From: a virus
Reading direction: 5' to 3' (one strand)
DNA: 25,968 nt
Virus record (IMG/VR): IMGVR_UViG_3300026194_000306
The position numbers were made by a program, and so were the translations under genes. Below are positions 1,008 to 25,968 of the stretch, in pieces. The notes under the pieces were generated by a model that was not told the origin of the DNA, made no database searches, and saw only the letters and a list, made by a program, of their open reading frames with translations. Numbering within the stretch: the stretch's first letter is position 1; each line of letters opens with the position of its first letter.

Positions 1008-1179
1008 CCACCGCCGCAACTCCGGCACCCAGGACCACAAGCCCCAACTCAAAGTAGGATGAGATCGTGCAGTAGGATTGCACCATTATGATCGCAAGTC
1101 CAGCAGTTACAATTCCAAGCCCCATCCAGGACAGATAATTATCGAGACGCCCTTTTCTGAGTGCCTTATTATGTCCCAT
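943..1179 (-). CDS. Small two-TM membrane protein, last gene of the early array
   Basis: ORF track; two hydrophobic segments; junction motif B directly upstream. Confidence 0.65.
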   Translation of the reverse strand: MGHNKALRKGRLDNYLSWMGLGIVTAGLAIIMVQSYCTISSYFELGLVVLGAGVAAVVMGGIYHSSPGSCSCGPGRGP

Positions 1180-1182
1180 TTC

Positions 1183-1344
1183 TCATTCCTCTACCACATG
1201 AGACCGGATAGCCAGCGGTCGCAGATCCGGCGAGCAGTCATATGACTGGTGGACGAACGCGGCCTCCTCGGTCGAAAACCGGCGACCGCAGACCCGGCAC
1301 CGATATCCGGCCGGGAGTTCTTCGATCTTCAGTTTGGCTTTCAC
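1183..1344 (-). CDS. 53-aa Zn-finger protein (CRVC...H...C), copy 1
   Basis: Translated by hand from GTG at 1344: MKAKLKIEELPAGYRCRVCGRRFSTEEAAFVHQSYDCSPDLRPLAIRSHVVEE; GAGGTGA RBS. Confidence 0.75.
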   Translation of the reverse strand: MKAKLKIEELPAGYRCRVCGRRFSTEEAAFVHQSYDCSPDLRPLAIRSHVVEE

Positions 1345-1354
1345 TCTTCACCTC
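1256..1354. repeat. 99-bp exact direct repeat, copy 1 (copy 2 at 25870-25968)
   Basis: Base-by-base comparison. Confidence 0.95.
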
Positions 1355-1521
1355 TACGCACAGCCCCGCTGCCGGAACCAAGGGCAGCACCGTTGCGTCT
1401 GGTCATCATATTCTTGTCCTGGCTGATACCCACACAGAGCCCGTTTCGGTCGAGCAGCGCACCGCTTGCAGATGATACGTCCCGACACGGATGTCTCTCC
1501 CCAGCCACACAGGTTTTTCAT
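1354..1521 (-). CDS. Cys-rich small protein MKNLCGWGET..., paralog of 23886-24098
   Basis: AGGTGACAAC ATG start; ends inside junction motif A. Confidence 0.75.
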   Translation of the reverse strand: MKNLCGWGETSVSGRIICKRCAARPKRALCGYQPGQEYDDQTQRCCPWFRQRGCA

Positions 1522-1538
1522 GTTGTCACCTACGCACA

Positions 1539-1796
1539 TCAGTCCCAGTCTCCACCGTCGTTCAGGATTTTTGCCTGATCGACCATAAACCGGGGGTCCA
1601 CTCCACCGAACTCCGTCATTACTGTGCTTTCTCCCTTGTTTCCACATCTCATGATACAGAGAGACCCGCTTCCAGAGAAAATCCAGAATCCATATTTTCC
1701 CAACGTCTCCGCTGCCGATTTAAACCGGGTCACAGCGGCTTTCTCCTCTTTTGTCAGATCCAGGAGTGCTTTTACCTCATCGTCGGTATATTCCAT
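1539..1796 (-). CDS. Hypothetical protein MEYTDDEV...
   Basis: ORF track trimmed to the ATG after AGGTGACAAC. Confidence 0.75.
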   Translation of the reverse strand: MEYTDDEVKALLDLTKEEKAAVTRFKSAAETLGKYGFWIFSGSGSLCIMRCGNKGESTVMTEFGGVDPRFMVDQAKILNDGGDWD

Positions 1797-1804
1797 GTTG
1801 TCAC

Positions 1805-2146
1805 CTACGCACACCTGCGGATCTCGTCCTGCGGGGATAGGATCGCCGGGTCCGGGCAGTGATCGTCACATGAGTAGATCAGGCAGCTGGCAACCCCAGC
1901 CCCTCGGCACTCGATTTCCCACGTCGCTGGCCGGTGGCAACCCTTGGTGTCGCAGGTTTCGCAGACGCGCCCCTCCAGCGCGATCCTGTCGTGGATCAAC
2001 TCATGCACCCGGAGCAGCCCATCCCAATCTATGTTGAGCCGCCCCCCGGAGCCGTCCGGGTAGGTCTGCTGGATGCGGTATAGGGCCTGCTCCGGCGGGG
2101 CATCGGGCGCGCCCGCCTTGATAATCTCAAACGTTTCGTCGTCCAT
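1805..2146 (-). CDS. Hypothetical protein with C-terminal Zn finger (CETC...C...C...C..HC)
   Basis: ORF track; RBS within motif B. Confidence 0.75.
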   Translation of the reverse strand: MDDETFEIIKAGAPDAPPEQALYRIQQTYPDGSGGRLNIDWDGLLRVHELIHDRIALEGRVCETCDTKGCHRPATWEIECRGAGVASCLIYSCDDHCPDPAILSPQDEIRRCA

Positions 2147-2152
2147 CGTCCC

Positions 2153-2350
2153 TCACTCCTCTACCAGGGCATCAACCGCCCTGCGGTTACATTCGACACA
2201 TAGCCCCTTTCCGACCTCAATGAAAGTCATCGATGGGAACAAGTGTGCGGGGTAGACCTCGCGGGCCGCTGCCAGGCTGTCAGCCAGCAGATACCAACCG
2301 CCCCGGATGATCTCTTCATTCGCGGATTCAACGCGGAATACTGGTTTCAT
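2153..2350 (-). CDS. Small protein with CVEC motif, ends LVEE
   Basis: ORF track; motif B on both sides. Confidence 0.7.
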   Translation of the reverse strand: MKPVFRVESANEEIIRGGWYLLADSLAAAREVYPAHLFPSMTFIEVGKGLCVECNRRAVDALVEE

Positions 2351-2353
2351 CCT

Positions 2354-2497
2354 TCAGTCCTCTACCAGCCCGTTAAGCGGGCATTTTGAGCAGTCCGCAC
2401 CGCATGACCGGCAGTGCTTACCATCCCACGATCCGACGCTGCAATCCTTTTCCGGGCAACAGGAGCCTGGGAGGTGCCTGAGTGTTATTGTGTCCAT
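2354..2497 (-). CDS. 47-aa Cys-rich protein MDTITLRHLPGSCCPEKDCSVGSWDGKHCRSCGADCSKCPLNGLVED
   Basis: Translated by hand; bounded by motif B copies. Confidence 0.65.
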   Translation of the reverse strand: MDTITLRHLPGSCCPEKDCSVGSWDGKHCRSCGADCSKCPLNGLVED

Positions 2498-2508
2498 CTT
2501 CTACTCCT

Positions 2509-2634
2509 CTACCATCCATCGTTTCGAGGATCGTGCTCTTCCTGCTTCCAGGCCCATGCTTCTCTTAGGCAGTCTTCACAGTTCTTCGGGCATTTCGGGT
2601 TGCACCGCCGGCAACTGTTATCATTCTCGTCCAT
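2509..2634 (-). CDS. 41-aa Cys-rich protein MDENDNSCRRCNPKCPKNCEDCLREAWAWKQEEHDPRNDGW
   Basis: Translated by hand; bounded by motif B copies. Confidence 0.65.
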   Translation of the reverse strand: MDENDNSCRRCNPKCPKNCEDCLREAWAWKQEEHDPRNDGW

Positions 2635-2648
2635 CGTCCTTCACTCCT

Positions 2649-2903
2649 CTACCATCTCACTCTTCGGACCACTGATTGACGATGATGTTGTCTCCGCAGA
2701 TGTTCACGCACAGGAAGCCCTAATTCTTCCTCTCTTTTCTCCATCGCCTCATATTCATCTAAGGAGAACTGGATGAGGGTTTCCTGCATTCTCTTCAGCT
2801 GGTTAAATTTGGTGTAGTGCTTCTTCCACTCGTCATCGGAGTATGCTTTATGAAGAGATTCTGTATCCGAAACCCCCCCGTCAATATTGATTATTTTAGA
2901 CAT
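2649..2903 (-). CDS. Hypothetical charged helical protein MSKIINIDGG...
   Basis: ORF track trimmed to the ATG after GAGGTGAAG. Confidence 0.7.
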   Translation of the reverse strand: MSKIINIDGGVSDTESLHKAYSDDEWKKHYTKFNQLKRMQETLIQFSLDEYEAMEKREEELGLPVREHLRRQHHRQSVVRRVRW

Positions 2904-2927
2904 CTTCACCTCTACGCACAGGGATGA

Positions 2928-4235: not shown

Positions 4236-4558
4236 CAGGCACCTCCGTCCCCGGTCAGACCGCGGGCGAGGTTCTCCCATCGGTGATCGCCTTCCTCTTC
4301 GTATGCCCCGGCGGTGTGCGCCCGGATCGTGTCCCGGCGCCGGTGCGAGAACCGGAAGTAGTGGTCCGGGCGGTTGCGGGCGGCCTGCTTGCACTGTTCG
4401 CTACAGAAGAGCAAGCGGCGCTTCCGGGTGCGGTCGTATGCCTCAACGGCTGCGGTGTATCTGAGGGGCTTGCCGCAGTAGTGGCAGGTTAGAGAGGGCT
4501 GTGTGCCCTGCTCCTGCGTTTCTGGCAGGGGTTCGATACTCGGATCATGTCTTTGCAT
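4235..4558 (-). CDS. TRASH/MYM-like Zn-finger protein (CHYC...FCSEQC)
   Basis: Motif CxxC-x22-FCSxxC; start after GGAGG. Confidence 0.7.
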   Translation of the reverse strand: MQRHDPSIEPLPETQEQGTQPSLTCHYCGKPLRYTAAVEAYDRTRKRRLLFCSEQCKQAARNRPDHYFRFSHRRRDTIRAHTAGAYEEEGDHRWENLARGLTGDGGA

Positions 4559-5777
4559 GTCTTCCTCCGTTGCCGCCCGTTGTGGTGGGTTGGCAGGGGC
4601 GGTTTTCGTGCCCGGTTTGACCGGGAACAAGGTTGGTCAGAACGAGGTCCCAGAGTTGTTCGTTCCGCTTCATGACGGCGGCGAGAATCTGGGTCACGTT
4701 GTCGAGCTTCTGCTGCATGGTGATGCCGCCGCAGACGGCCGCCTCGATGCTGTTGAGCTGGGCGGTGAGCGGCTGGATGGCCTGGGGGATCGCGGCGGTG
4801 ATGTGGTCGGCGATGGTGCTGTCGAGCCGGTGCATCTGGAAGATGGCCCGGTCGAGGGCGGTAGCGCGGGCGGGGTCGAGGGTCTCGATCTCGGCGTGGT
4901 AGGGGTCGCCGTTGCTCTCGGGGCTGTGGTCGATCCAGAAGCCGGGGAGAGCGGTTTGTTCGGCGGCGTGCGGGGCGTCGGTGCAGAAGGTGAAGCCGTA
5001 GTGGGTTTTCGTGGGCTGGCGGCCGTGCGTGACTTCGAGGTATACGCCGAAGCGTCGCTGCTTCTCGACGAAGAGGGCGATAGCGTCCTCGATGGCCTTC
5101 CGGGTGAGTTCTTCGGCGTCCTGGATGCTCTCGGCGGTGACGGTCTGCCCTTTGTCGGGGTAGGCGGTGAGGGTGCCGGGGTGGACGTCGATGGTGACGT
5201 TCGGGGCGGTGCCTTTGCCGGGGTAGAAGAATTTGTGGCGGGCGCCGCCTCGCATGTTCCAGCTCTTTTCGTAGCCGGTGCGTGGGTCGGTGGCGACGGG
5301 GCCGGATTGTCTGAGGATGGTGTAGGACCGGCGGATGTTGTGGACGCGGCAGCTGGTGTACTGGATGTAGTCGGTCTCCCGGTCGATCTGTTTTCTGAGG
5401 GCCGGGTTTACTGAGTAGGTGGCGTTGTAGGGGCTGCCTCGCGAGGGTTCGATTGTGGGGGAGATGCCGTTCTTCCGGGCCTGCTCGGCGGCGGCTTCGG
5501 CTTTCTCCCGGGTGAGGTAGTCCTCTCGATAGGGGCGGTCGCCGAGGCGGTAGGTGAGTGTCCAGGCGCGACCGTTTTTCTGGAGGAGGTTGAGTTTCTG
5601 GAATCGTTTGACGATCTGATGGATGTACTGCCGGGAGACGTTGAGCCTGCGCCCGATCTCGGCCTGGGTGTAGTCGCCGAGGGCGAGGAGTTTGAGGGCC
5701 CGGGTCTGGAGGGGGTTCAATCGCTGGACGTAGGCGAGCGCCGCGAGATCCTCGATGGTCTGCTGGCGCTCGGACAT
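4545..5777 (-). CDS. 410-aa winged-helix DNA-binding protein, candidate replication initiator
   Basis: N-terminal HTH (YTQAEIGRRLNVSRQYIHQIVKRF); C-terminal coiled-coil-like region; largest early gene. The initiator role is inference. Confidence 0.7.
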   Translation of the reverse strand: MSERQQTIEDLAALAYVQRLNPLQTRALKLLALGDYTQAEIGRRLNVSRQYIHQIVKRFQKLNLLQKNGRAWTLTYRLGDRPYREDYLTREKAEAAAEQARKNGISPTIEPSRGSPYNATYSVNPALRKQIDRETDYIQYTSCRVHNIRRSYTILRQSGPVATDPRTGYEKSWNMRGGARHKFFYPGKGTAPNVTIDVHPGTLTAYPDKGQTVTAESIQDAEELTRKAIEDAIALFVEKQRRFGVYLEVTHGRQPTKTHYGFTFCTDAPHAAEQTALPGFWIDHSPESNGDPYHAEIETLDPARATALDRAIFQMHRLDSTIADHITAAIPQAIQPLTAQLNSIEAAVCGGITMQQKLDNVTQILAAVMKRNEQLWDLVLTNLVPGQTGHENRPCQPTTTGGNGGRHAKT

Positions 5778-9507: not shown

Positions 9508-10167
9508 TTACCAGAAATTCTGAGTGGAATAATAGTACTGGTGACCGTCGTGCGCCACTCCTACGCCCAACCTGCTATATTGAGGATCGAGAATGTTCTG
9601 TTTATGACCGGGGCTTTTCATCCAGGAATCAACCTGTGCTCTGGCAATGGCATCCGCGGTGTTTGCCACAACCCCGATACCCGCGACGTTTCCCGTTGGC
9701 ATCTTGCCGATATTCTCCCCAATGCCGTCTGAATACCACCCGCCGCCAAGGTTCTTTCGTAGAGGATACCCATACTTGCGAGCACGATCTGTTGGATCGT
9801 CTCCTTGCAAGTTATCATGAGAGAAGTAATTATTATCAACCATATCCTGGCTGTGCCGTCGTGCAATGGTTGAGAGTTGATCGTCCCATTCAAGGGGTGC
9901 GACCCCGTGTTTCTGCCGTTCCTCGTTAGTATATTTCAGAATTAAAGGTTCTACATCTTCTGGAGGGACGCGGCCCAAAAATTCCGGTAATTGAGAGAGT
10001 TCATCTAAGAAAGGGACTGTTATTTGCCCTGTTCCGCTATATGGCTCTGAGAGTGCCGCGTCGGGCAATGGCTGATACATCAGCCATACTATTGGTCCTC
10101 CGACCACTACGCAAAAGATAATGGCGAGTATTGTTTCTCGTTGCTCTTTCCAGATGTTCTCGCGCAT
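9508..10167 (-). CDS. Membrane-anchored CAP (SCP/YkwD-like) domain protein
   Basis: TNEER..G..PL..D..L...AR.HS.DM...YFSH, GENI and WMKSPGHKQNIL motifs; N-terminal TM. Confidence 0.9.
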   Translation of the reverse strand: MRENIWKEQRETILAIIFCVVVGGPIVWLMYQPLPDAALSEPYSGTGQITVPFLDELSQLPEFLGRVPPEDVEPLILKYTNEERQKHGVAPLEWDDQLSTIARRHSQDMVDNNYFSHDNLQGDDPTDRARKYGYPLRKNLGGGWYSDGIGENIGKMPTGNVAGIGVVANTADAIARAQVDSWMKSPGHKQNILDPQYSRLGVGVAHDGHQYYYSTQNFW

Positions 10168-22180: not shown

Positions 22181-22318
22181 ACTTGAATATGTGGACTATA
22201 GAGACTATTAATTTTCTCTATAGTTGCCCGGATCGGAGCCGTCCGGGACGGCTACGGCATCCTTAAAGAGGTTCCGCGACCTATAGTTGTGGCGCAGAGA
22301 TTTTGATAGGGCCATACT

Positions 22319-22381
22319 AGTGTAGTGGTCACAATCTCAACGCACCCCCGTAGAGTGATACGAGATTGTGACCACTACACT
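22319..22381. repeat. Perfect 20-bp inverted repeat with a 23-nt spacer, upstream of the integrase
   Basis: AGTGTAGTGGTCACAATCTC 22319-22338 / GAGATTGTGACCACTACACT 22362-22381. Confidence 0.95.
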
Positions 22382-22410
22382 TATGGGGCTCTAGAGGCAT
22401 TCTCCTTTTC

Positions 22411-23682
22411 ATGAGCACGTTTCGTTACCGCGACCGGCCGGAGTACCGGGCGTCTATCCTCCGGCAGGCGGTTGATGACGGGAGGCTGTCGAGCCGGGAG
22501 AGTGATCTGATACAACAGTTCCTGGCAGAGCGCCGGGCGAAGAAGGGGCTCTCGCAGGGAAGGTTGTCCCTTTACACCCATCACCTGATCAGGATCCGGG
22601 ACTTCGTGCCGTGTGCCTACCCGGAGATGGCTGCCCTGGACTTGATGATGTGCGTGAACAGTATCTCGGACGGGGTTTCCCAGAAGGGGGTGCCGTTTTC
22701 GCAGAACACGAAGCACGACTATATCCTGACTCTGAAGATTTTTACGCGGTGGATGGTCGAGCGGGGGATCGTCGATATCCCTCTGTCCGAGGTGAAGGAG
22801 ATTGATGTTCCCCGGCAGCCGCGGGCGACGAAGACCGCGGACGACATGCTATCCGACAAGGAGATCCTTGTTGTGATGGGGGCCTGCGGGAACTCGAAGG
22901 AGCGGGCGATGGTCTCGACGGTGTATGATGCGGCGTTGCGGATCGAGGAACTTCAGGATCTCCGGTGGGGGCGGATAGCACGGCTGAAGCACGGCGTGGC
23001 GATCACGACGGATAAGAAGACCGGATACCAAAGGCGGATCCCCTGCACGGTGTGCGGGTCGTACCTGACGGCCTGGCGGAACGATTACCCGGGGGACGCG
23101 ACGGGGGAGAACTTCGTGTTCATCACGAAGGACCTGGAGCCGTACATGTATAGCGGGTTCCAGTACGTCCTGAAGAAGATCCGGAAGCGGCTGAGGGACC
23201 AGGGGCACGGGGAGATCGCGGATAAGTTAGGCTGGCACGTCCTGCGACATGCCCGACTGACGGAGTTTGTCCGCCGGGGGATGTCGGAGACGACGCTCGG
23301 TCAGATCGGGTGGGGGCATCGCTCCTCGATGATCGAGTGCTACGTACACATGAGCAGGGACGATATCGAACGGGAGGTGCTGGCGATTGCCGGTATCAAG
23401 GACGATCAGGCCGAGCGCCCGACGCCGGTGTTCGTGCCCGGGGTCTGCCCGGTGTGTGCATGCACGGATGTCCCGCCGACCGCGTTGTACTGTCCGTCGT
23501 GCCGGTCGCCGCTGACGGAGGAGGCACGGGAGGAGGCTGAGCGGCTGGACCGGGAGACGTCTGACCTTGAGATCCTGCGGGTGCTGCAGGACCCGGTGCA
23601 GCGGGAGTTGTTCCTGTCGATTGTGGATCGGATGCGGAGGGAGGAGGAGGCGCGGGAGGCGCAGGAGGGGGTGAAAGAGTAA
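22411..23682 (+). CDS. Tyrosine recombinase/integrase with an N-terminal CB domain and a C-terminal double Zn ribbon
   Basis: DAALRIEE (R), KKT (K), HVLRH, GWGH, ECYVH (Y); CPVC...CPSC. Confidence 0.93.
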   Translation: MSTFRYRDRPEYRASILRQAVDDGRLSSRESDLIQQFLAERRAKKGLSQGRLSLYTHHLIRIRDFVPCAYPEMAALDLMMCVNSISDGVSQKGVPFSQNTKHDYILTLKIFTRWMVERGIVDIPLSEVKEIDVPRQPRATKTADDMLSDKEILVVMGACGNSKERAMVSTVYDAALRIEELQDLRWGRIARLKHGVAITTDKKTGYQRRIPCTVCGSYLTAWRNDYPGDATGENFVFITKDLEPYMYSGFQYVLKKIRKRLRDQGHGEIADKLGWHVLRHARLTEFVRRGMSETTLGQIGWGHRSSMIECYVHMSRDDIEREVLAIAGIKDDQAERPTPVFVPGVCPVCACTDVPPTALYCPSCRSPLTEEAREEAERLDRETSDLEILRVLQDPVQRELFLSIVDRMRREEEAREAQEGVKE

Positions 23683-23885: not shown

Positions 23886-24098
23886 ATGGAAAACAGATGT
23901 GGGTGGGGTGAAACAGACCGATCCGGAATGGTCGTGTGCAAGCGAGGTGCCCCATGCGCAACCCTAGAGTACTGCGGGCGCGATCTTGAGGACCCGGATG
24001 CCCCGGCGTCTCAACGCTATTGTAAGTGGTTTATCGAGAGAGGGGCACCATCAGTTCTGCGGTGTGGGCATCTCGTCGGGAGAAGGCTGGTAGAATGA
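23886..24098 (+). CDS. Cys-rich small protein MENRCGWGET..., paralog of 1354-1521
   Basis: Shared M.N.CGWGET..SG...CKR.A......CG...QR.C.WF..RG. Confidence 0.75.
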   Translation: MENRCGWGETDRSGMVVCKRGAPCATLEYCGRDLEDPDAPASQRYCKWFIERGAPSVLRCGHLVGRRLVE

Positions 24099-24673
24099 GT
24101 GAACCGCTCCTGATCCGGTCCGAGAAGGGGAATACCGTCCGGGTCTTCACGCCGGCAGAGGTGGACGCCCTGACCGCGGCGATCAAGCAGCCACACCACC
24201 GGACCCTCTTCAATGTCCTGCTGTGGACGGGGATGCGATACGTCGAGGTGCAGCGGCTACACGAGCACCCGGAGTACGTGCTTCAGGCACGGGGGTATAT
24301 CGACCTGCCCTTTGATGCGGCGAGGAAGAAGAAGGGGAAGCGGACCCCGCCACAGAGGCAGGTGCCGGTCCCGCAGCAGCTCGCCGGGGAGCTGCCGTAC
24401 TTCTTCAGGAACCCGGCCCCGCCCACGGTCCAGGTGTGGGGAAGGAACCTGAAGCGGTGGGCGGTCGCGGCCGGCATCGGGGATGTGGGGGTCTCGCCGA
24501 AGAGCACCAGGAAGACGATCGAGTCATGGATGGTGGTGATTGATGTGCCGATGAATAAGGTGTGCCTCCGGCAGGGGCATGACTCGGTGACGTCGCTGGG
24601 GTATTATCAGAACATGGCGTTCACCTACGATGAGGTGTCTGAGATCCGCCGGCGGCTGGCGTCGTGGGTGTGA
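24095..24673 (+). CDS. Short tyrosine recombinase, catalytic domain only (192 aa)
   Basis: WTGMRYVE (R), KSTRKT (H replaced by K in HxxR), QGH, LGYY (Y); start at the ATGA overlap; no N-terminal CB domain. Confidence 0.85.
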   Translation: MSEPLLIRSEKGNTVRVFTPAEVDALTAAIKQPHHRTLFNVLLWTGMRYVEVQRLHEHPEYVLQARGYIDLPFDAARKKKGKRTPPQRQVPVPQQLAGELPYFFRNPAPPTVQVWGRNLKRWAVAAGIGDVGVSPKSTRKTIESWMVVIDVPMNKVCLRQGHDSVTSLGYYQNMAFTYDEVSEIRRRLASWV

Positions 24674-24692: not shown

Positions 24693-25413
24693 TGTCAAGC
24701 AGTTGACGACCCCTGTTCTTTACTCGTGTCAAGTGCTTGACGGCGCTTGACATCCCTTTTTCGCTGTGCTTGCACCGTTGCCGCATCGGGGCTATTTCCG
24801 GCCCGCTAACACCCCCCATGTTTTTACTTGACACGATGTATGGATATTGCCGAGGGGCCGGCGGAGGGGGTGAGGGGGGAAATTGTGAGAATGGGGCGGG
24901 TTTGGACCGAACGCAACGCCGGGACCGGCCCGGATCCGCGTGGGGGAGAGGGTCAGAACGAGGGTGTTTCACTCCGGCCGGGAAGGGTGATCTACGGGAA
25001 TGTCAAGTGCCGTAACATCTCCCGCTTGACAACGAGTAAACTACCCTGTTAATGTTACTCCGTTTCAGAATCGGAGCAAATTTAACAGCATCTTTACTTG
25101 ACAACTTTTTGCTTGACACATATATGTGTTTGGAGTGTCAAGTGATATGGATGATAGATTTTCCCGGATCGAGAAATGCGGCACGGTGAGGCGTAAACTA
25201 GACGGATTCAGGATATTATATCGCAGCGAGATAAAAATGGATGTGTGAAAACGATCCGACTTGGGCCCAGGTAGATGCACCCTGTCGTTTCACCAGAGCG
25301 TCAGGTTGACATTTCTGGACTTGCTGTAAGCCGAGCGTTAACAGGTGTTAGCATATAAGGAGTTTATAAAAAAGAGGGCGGGGGCCTTGTCGTTGTGCGG
25401 GGAGAATGTCAAG
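24693..25413. repeat. Cluster of TGTCAAG/CTTGACA boxes (iteron-like), candidate replication origin
   Basis: Perfect copies at 24693, 24727, 24746, 24827, 25001, 25025, 25097, 25112, 25136, 25407; 1-2 mismatch copies at 24702, 24736, 25305. Confidence 0.85.
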
Positions 25414-25573
25414 GTTGGAACGCTCGATACTCTCTGACGAGGAGCCGGCACTTATCACGTAACCATATGATGAGGAAGCCCACGATCACCACCGGCAGCA
25501 AAAGCAGGTGGGCAAGGTCTTGTACCTCGTCTCTCTCCCCGATTTTATGAAGGATGAATCTTAGGAGTTTCAT
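25409..25573 (-). CDS. 54-aa single-TM protein MKLLRFILHKIGERDEVQDLAHLLLLPVVIVGFLIIWLRDK...
   Basis: Translated by hand; ATGA overlap with the upstream gene. Confidence 0.55.
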   Translation of the reverse strand: MKLLRFILHKIGERDEVQDLAHLLLLPVVIVGFLIIWLRDKCRLLVREYRAFQP

Positions 25574-25821
25574 TGACCCTCACGCACATATGCCCTAACA
25601 CATTCCGACTCTTTTACCCAATGCCCCGGTTTTAGGGCTGCACGACAATATAGGACGGTAAAGTGCCCGCATCGGCCCGTCACCCTGTGAACCGGGCCAC
25701 CATTATACCGGCACCCGAAACACCGCCCGTCGCCACTCTTGACGGGGAGGGTCGGAGTCCCGTGCCAGTCCCCCTCGTGCCGCCTGCGGGCACCATCCAG
25801 AGTTAAGCAAGGATTGCACAT
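25570..25821 (-). CDS. Cys-rich hypothetical protein MCNPC...CFGC...
   Basis: ORF track trimmed to the ATG after motif A (AGGTGACAAGA). Confidence 0.7.
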   Translation of the reverse strand: MCNPCLTLDGARRRHEGDWHGTPTLPVKSGDGRCFGCRYNGGPVHRVTGRCGHFTVLYCRAALKPGHWVKESECVRAYVREGQ

Positions 25822-25826
25822 TCTTG

Positions 25827-25958
25827 TCACCTACGCACAGTCTTCGAGCAGTCCCACGATTGATGCACAAACGCGGCCTCCTCGGTCGAAAACCGGCGAC
25901 CGCAGACCCGGCACCGATATCCGGCCGGGAGTTCTTCGATCTTCAGTTTGGCTTTCAC
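25827..25958 (-). CDS. 43-aa Zn-finger protein, copy 2 (MKAKLK...VHQSWDCSKTVRR)
   Basis: Translated by hand; 5' part identical to 1183-1344. Confidence 0.75.
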   Translation of the reverse strand: MKAKLKIEELPAGYRCRVCGRRFSTEEAAFVHQSWDCSKTVRR

Positions 25959-25968
25959 TCTTCACCTC
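25870..25968. repeat. 99-bp exact direct repeat, copy 2
   Basis: Identical to 1256-1354. Confidence 0.95.

Follow-up and report, generated by a model that had tools for sequence, protein, structure and literature searches.

Here, we propose that a row of small promoterless gene cassettes in an archaeal virus is exchanged site-specifically, most likely by a tyrosine recombinase, a reading towards which we lean on balance in the absence of circle or raw-read data. This is based on gene swaps at exact 6-7-base joints and on a symmetric end site shaped like a recombinase target, which together point to integron-like shuffling from non-integron parts. With slightly more doubt than belief, we further suggest that the arrays represent an undescribed class of cassette system, combining a tyrosine recombinase of Xer-like geometry, one-armed sites in the stop/ribosome-site region, a two-armed site closing the array, orthogonal core classes, and a pool of more than 100 genes shared by unrelated archaeal virus families.

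The cassette array and its virus

The window (the whole stretch of DNA analysed, 25,968 nucleotides) had been described as carrying one of two exact motifs at each junction of a row of small genes. All ten motif copies of this preliminary description sit at the positions it gave, every one on the minus strand, and its identical 20-mer and 18-mer are found in the sequence. There are five matches to TGTGCGTAGRKG (0.44 expected; none of 100 shuffles reached 5) and five exact copies of TGGTAGAGGA, or seven with up to one mismatch (1.54 expected; 0/100 shuffles). The repeated motif is real, but its invariant part is just 6-7 nt long, being either TGTGCG(T) (class A) or TGGTAG(A) (class B). It is not plain ribosome-site context, the exact core being absent from gene starts outside the arrays both in the window (0/31 valid starts) and in the virus isolate Blf4 (0/63). 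The view that the motif dictates the C-termini does not hold for every gene, as the 75-aa and 85-aa genes stop just ahead of it. The core is read as xVE in 87 of 147 upstream gene types and as W-stop, in another frame, in 26, so the constraint acts on nucleic acid. Where the 192-aa recombinase gene starts (24088), there is a TGGTAGA that probably reflects chance (N-termini of homologs do not conserve the word), and lone motif matches in other viral contigs were likewise rejected as chance matches. An Rfam search gave no match, nor did blastn of the array against a phage collection.

Along the minus strand, the first junction, after the 75-aa gene, is a class A core (2914-2920), followed by an 84-aa cassette without known family (2649-2903), within which an extra class A core (2706-2712), not in the preliminary description, marks where shorter relatives of that gene stop. 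Class B cores then stand ahead of a Cys-rich 41-aa cassette (core TGGTAGA, 2648-2654; gene 2509-2634), a Cys-rich 47-aa cassette present too in the RecT siphovirus L107 (core 2508-2514; gene 2354-2497), a 65-aa cassette (core 2361-2367; gene 2153-2350), and a 113-aa cassette with 128 related stretches in metagenomes (core 2160-2166; gene 1805-2146). Class A cores follow, ahead of an 85-aa cassette (core 1807-1813; gene 1539-1796), a Cys-rich 55-aa cassette (core 1532-1538; gene 1354-1521), and a 53-aa zinc-finger-like cassette (core 1356-1362; gene 1183-1344) whose Pfam matches are below cut-off and of which a variant copy lies at 25827-25958.

The contig consists of a circle of 24.6 kb and a tail, with 1254-1354 identical to 25868-25968. 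In other samples (L111, L133-L135) the circle runs on via 25839 and 25588, two further class A joints, to 25409. The tail (1-1250) matches the early region of tailed Blf4-like viruses, and hence the junction at 1187, with its class B core (1190-1196), probably comes from a second virus sharing the same cassettes, as, on sequence grounds, would the whole left 1.25 kb of the window. The last cassette of the tail (943-1179) encodes a hydrophobic 78-aa protein and holds a degenerate class B terminal site with an intact left arm (967-994). The true course of the array is from 2920 to 1356 and then from 25839 to 25386: a class A core at 25833-25839, a Cys-rich 83-aa cassette (25570-25821), a class A core missing from the preliminary description (25582-25588), the last cassette, of 54 aa (25409-25573), and a terminal site (25386-25413).

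The window also encodes a 117-aa two-helix capsid candidate (a weak PHROG virion match), a probable ATPase, membrane proteins and two tyrosine recombinases, and looks like a spindle-type archaeal virus, the morphotype being inferred. Relatives of its backbone proteins were not found in viral_contigs. Other genes include one for a CAP-domain secreted-type protein (9508-10167); in L067 (4935-5571), two capsid-like genes lie in tandem. A 410-aa protein with an N-terminal HTH (4545-5777) is possibly a Rep_trans-like rolling-circle initiator, for which Rep-Arvir (PMC13107129) offers a comparison; its single-sequence fold was unusable (pLDDT 41).

Exchange of cassettes at the core

The preliminary description had inferred that the cassettes are exchanged at the junction motifs, and the relatives bear this out, holding the same genes in other orders with breakpoints inside the motifs. 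About 100 related loci yielded 579 junctions with 344 distinct upstream-downstream joins between 188 upstream and 138 downstream gene types. The sample is skewed to the 113-aa cassette, which served as search query, so that its 40 types of downstream neighbour are an inflated figure; the pair counts are not independent, and long-range gene order in the contigs may be chimeric. The 65-aa cassette has 14 types of upstream neighbour, 16 gene pairs are found both ways round, and 95 join types recur in at least two loci. Strains whose 7.9-kb backbone is 100% identical differ by whole cassettes, and the 85-aa cassette, which lies between 1813 and 1538 and is flanked by identical 20-mers, is cleanly absent in L133 and L007. 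At 209 joins involving downstream genes with at least three neighbours, the core is exact class B in 166 and exact class A in 12. Cores also close arrays without any gene behind.

Several peculiarities of the arrays were recorded alongside. Five loci (L008, L019, L099, L010, L050) have tandem or empty sites, in which either two cores are separated by 11 nt or the core is read as a mini-ORF of four codons that follows a ribosome site of its own. In L106 (9748-10733 and 14742-15900) and in L059, an array holds the same cassettes two times over, whether through true duplication or through assembly. IS605-type TnpB and RRXRR (IscB-like) genes lie in or beside arrays in L054, L067 and L098, and one long ORF near arrays (alignment A1, member not identified) matches the reverse transcriptase family RVT_1 (E 1e-18).

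Homology blocks between loci have their first base at core position 0 and their last, in most cases, between +6 and +10, with 38-51% of block ends falling within -10 to +25 of the motif, as against 6.5% by chance. At +7, identity is 0.85 between joins sharing the downstream gene, 0.59 between those sharing the upstream gene and 0.58 in the background; left of the core the pattern is reversed and the bases follow the upstream gene, with which the core variants also seem to move. This boundary is sharp and lies at the same base for 188 upstream types. Insofar as aligned sequences can show it, the strand exchange falls within the core, an overlap length of 6 or 7 nt not being resolved.

The internal joint thus consists of the 6-7-nt core, a right arm and a free left side, the left flank carrying almost no information. 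The right arm, approximately RRAnnGnWAG in class B and ending in GACAAG/GTGAAG in class A, is semi-conserved and overlaps the ribosome site; A+9, G+12, A+15 and G+16 are kept in 33 long leaders in which the ribosome site lies farther on, a conservation possibly inflated by common ancestry of the leaders. Class A has its own core and, as far as the aligned sites allow us to judge, class B arms are taken rarely if ever, the two classes appearing not to mix. In L038 (870-1590) there is a possible third class, which combines CAGTGT-type cores with arms of class A and has its terminal site, of 10-7-10 layout, next to a small recombinase.

Terminal site, candidate enzymes and rival explanations

The arrays close with a symmetric, two-armed 11-6-11 site of 28 bp, which is the layout of Xer/dif sites. 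The arm sequence of these arrays does not appear to resemble the commonly known dif arms. The class B consensus is CTATCACTCCT-CCCCCG-AGGAGTGATAG, in which the right arm equals the internal arm in the same register; terminal and internal arms agree in class, and the window has a class A version, CTTGACATTCT-CCCCGC-ACAACGACAAG, followed by a T-rich run. There are 11 occurrences of CTATCA-N16-TGATAG at this spacing (0.04 expected) and one at all other spacings from 8 to 25. The 32 terminal sites, found in viruses with and without tails, have 18 different contexts upstream and 18 downstream, and nearly all lie one gene past the last core. Their spacer is unlike the internal cores.

Directly behind array ends lie small tyrosine recombinases of about 190 aa, consisting of the catalytic domain only and belonging to three lineages (the window; L015, L038 and L136; L018 and L033), and, in two other virus types, large integrases. 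That of the window (192 aa; 24095-24673, plus strand; R48, K136-x-x-R139, H162, Y171) is a candidate enzyme, whereas the 423-aa large integrase (22411-23682, plus strand) more likely, we infer, serves provirus integration. A non-coding stretch between the small recombinase and the array end (24693-25412) holds 11 class A arm-like TTGACA copies in both orientations, putatively accessory binding sites or an origin. A long imperfect inverted repeat (22312-22386) upstream of the large integrase has no tRNA or Rfam match and is a possible attP or origin hairpin. A recombinase common to all array carriers was not found, and Blf4 has none. By inference, the best fit would be either a small viral tyrosine recombinase that works in trans or an enzyme of the host; it has not been identified, and no link to the recombinases of the window is proven. 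It would bind the arm and exchange strands across the core, as Rci does at one-armed shufflon sites, with excision, insertion or exchange between genomes as the outcome, inversion not being expected because all sites share one direction. The arm may also serve as stop codon and ribosome site, in which case each new neighbour would end cleanly and be translated.

The main rival, unlikely in our judgement though one to be taken seriously, is microhomology recombination at a self-spreading linker, by RecT-type annealing or replication slippage on 7-20 nt. The linker would be kept by selection for stop codons and a ribosome site, and the terminal palindrome would be merely a terminator hairpin, which remains possible and which the T-rich run behind it would suit. 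Such recombination would also accommodate the presence of RecT near arrays in tailed viruses, the lack of a universal recombinase, the sites that share 16-28 nt, the loss of the 85-aa cassette between its 20-mers, and the fact that leaders themselves are swapped between genes, re-assorting at the start codon. Longer homology is not favoured, however: in 12 precise gain/loss relations of class B the repeat is only 7-8 nt in 7, and it does not exceed that of randomly paired sites (p=0.60), the sole sign of a homology bias being that leaders show a weak excess of similarity where the upstream gene is rare (p 0.03-0.05). Neither the same-base boundary nor the fixed arm bases away from the ribosome site are explained by microhomology, and terminal sites that have largely lost right-arm pairing still keep a conserved left arm and spacer. 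Site-specific exchange by a tyrosine recombinase is itself not free of difficulties. Terminal arms differ between closely related recombinases (69% identical) and are shared by distant ones, a homolog at 54% is not accompanied by a motif array, and microhomology away from the cores is used in some joins (L085, L033), all of which we count against it, together with the missing universal recombinase, the unlike spacer, the leader swaps and the weak leader-similarity excess. In addition, inversion is the only reaction reported for one-armed sites of the Rci type (PMC11852207).

The motifs could instead be a regulatory RNA or DNA signal, that is, a protein-binding or processing site tied to the start of translation, with shuffling as a side effect of ordinary recombination, for which any word that is repeated would do. 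They do lie on a single strand, always ahead of a start codon and limited to the early small-gene region, as mycobacteriophage SAS elements are placed (PMC3203893), and the terminal left arm could, from its sequence, pair with leaders in the transcript. We find this improbable, since exact joins, core variants that seem to travel with the upstream gene, cores ending arrays with no gene behind, and two non-mixing classes are left unaccounted for. Scarcely credible are an assembly artefact or selection for a C-terminal peptide tag (xVE), even if a change from one virus to another occurs at shared cassettes in the window and in some long contigs, and xVE is the commoner reading of the core. Assemblers (k of at least 21) cannot join at 7 nt, the recurrent joins speak against an artefact, as does the isolate Blf4 with its bounded cassette, and the 26 genes that read the core in the other frame speak against a tag.

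Relation to known systems and the shared gene pool

The preliminary description had called the array possibly integron-like, which is apt for its logic and not for its parts. Integrons, including archaeal ones (PMC9668308), are similar in that their cassettes come from a shared pool, hold one gene each without a promoter, all point the same way and are joined at a short core. The arrays here, in contrast, have a special site at their far end, a core that is not GTTRRRY, and no attC hairpin, inverse core or IntI match, and are hence not integrons. Folding of the junctions is not stronger than that of gene interiors (z about 0 to -0.6), no exact inverse core was found at junction sites, so that both were rejected, and neither window recombinase matches TIGR02249 (IntI). 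The R64 shufflon, with its Rci recombinase and sfx sites (PMC11852207), is alike in its 7-bp core, conserved right arm and variable left arm within coding sequence. Its inverted sites and segment inversion are absent from the arrays, where 322 motif copies lie on the array strand and 4 on the other, all from two loci taken reversed; all sites are direct repeats, whole genes are gained or lost, the arm is looser and only partly conserved, and no Rci-like enzyme has been identified, the small tyrosine recombinases adjoining some arrays with none universal. Acinetobacter pdif modules are gene units flanked by Xer sites (PMC7399989), the geometry of which is matched by the terminal site only, the internal sites being one-armed.

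The PeSLs of T4-type phages (PMC2839356) likewise shuffle small orphan genes at repeated ribosome-site junction elements, with excision circles as an expected intermediate and a similar evolutionary role. PeSLs, however, are long promoter and stem-loop elements recombining over homologous zones, whereas here exchange is confined to 6-7 nt, cassettes have no promoter each, and the leaders (3-29 nt) have no hairpin. A PeSL-like, duplicated, AT-rich, promoter-like module, about 40 nt long, lies ahead of early genes in Blf4 (L123, 24130-24600) and in related tailed viruses. The SAS of cluster K mycobacteriophages (PMC3203893) is also an asymmetric word of a single orientation that covers the ribosome site of non-structural genes, but is proposed as a translation signal, whereas the word here is an exchange point. 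A literature search, with most subscription papers outside its coverage, found no published description of the present system.

The cassettes are shown to be common to unrelated Methanoculleus viruses, both spindle-type and tailed. The 65-aa protein is identical in spindle-type viruses and RecT-carrying tailed viruses, and Blf4, isolated on Methanoculleus bourgensis E02.3 (PMC8540584), carries one pool cassette (identity about 90%), with a one-mismatch core on one side and an exact core on the other. The assignment of the host genus rests on this cassette and on a MAG label. Many near-identical copies of cassette proteins are found in digester metagenomes. The genes are small (median 72 aa) and often Cys-rich (58/136), and the few that could be annotated include a C5 methyltransferase, PAPS reductase, MazG-like, radical SAM, OGG-like, HNH and DUF4417 proteins. 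By inference, the cargo is probably an early-expressed host-interaction pool; the DNA-modifying members fit counter-defence, although no data here show such a role.

The host of Blf4 has a type I-U CRISPR system with spacers against this virus (PMC8540584). As a cultured virus-host pair with a cassette exists, the idea is directly testable. For multiplex assembly, a recombinase that needs no more than a short core and a single arm would make a compact tool, and the arrays offer a bounded catalogue of more than 100 small, mostly unknown early genes for anti-CRISPR and anti-restriction screening. If true, our proposal would account for the base-pair-precise trade in accessory genes among viruses that differ in morphotype but have a methanogen host in common.
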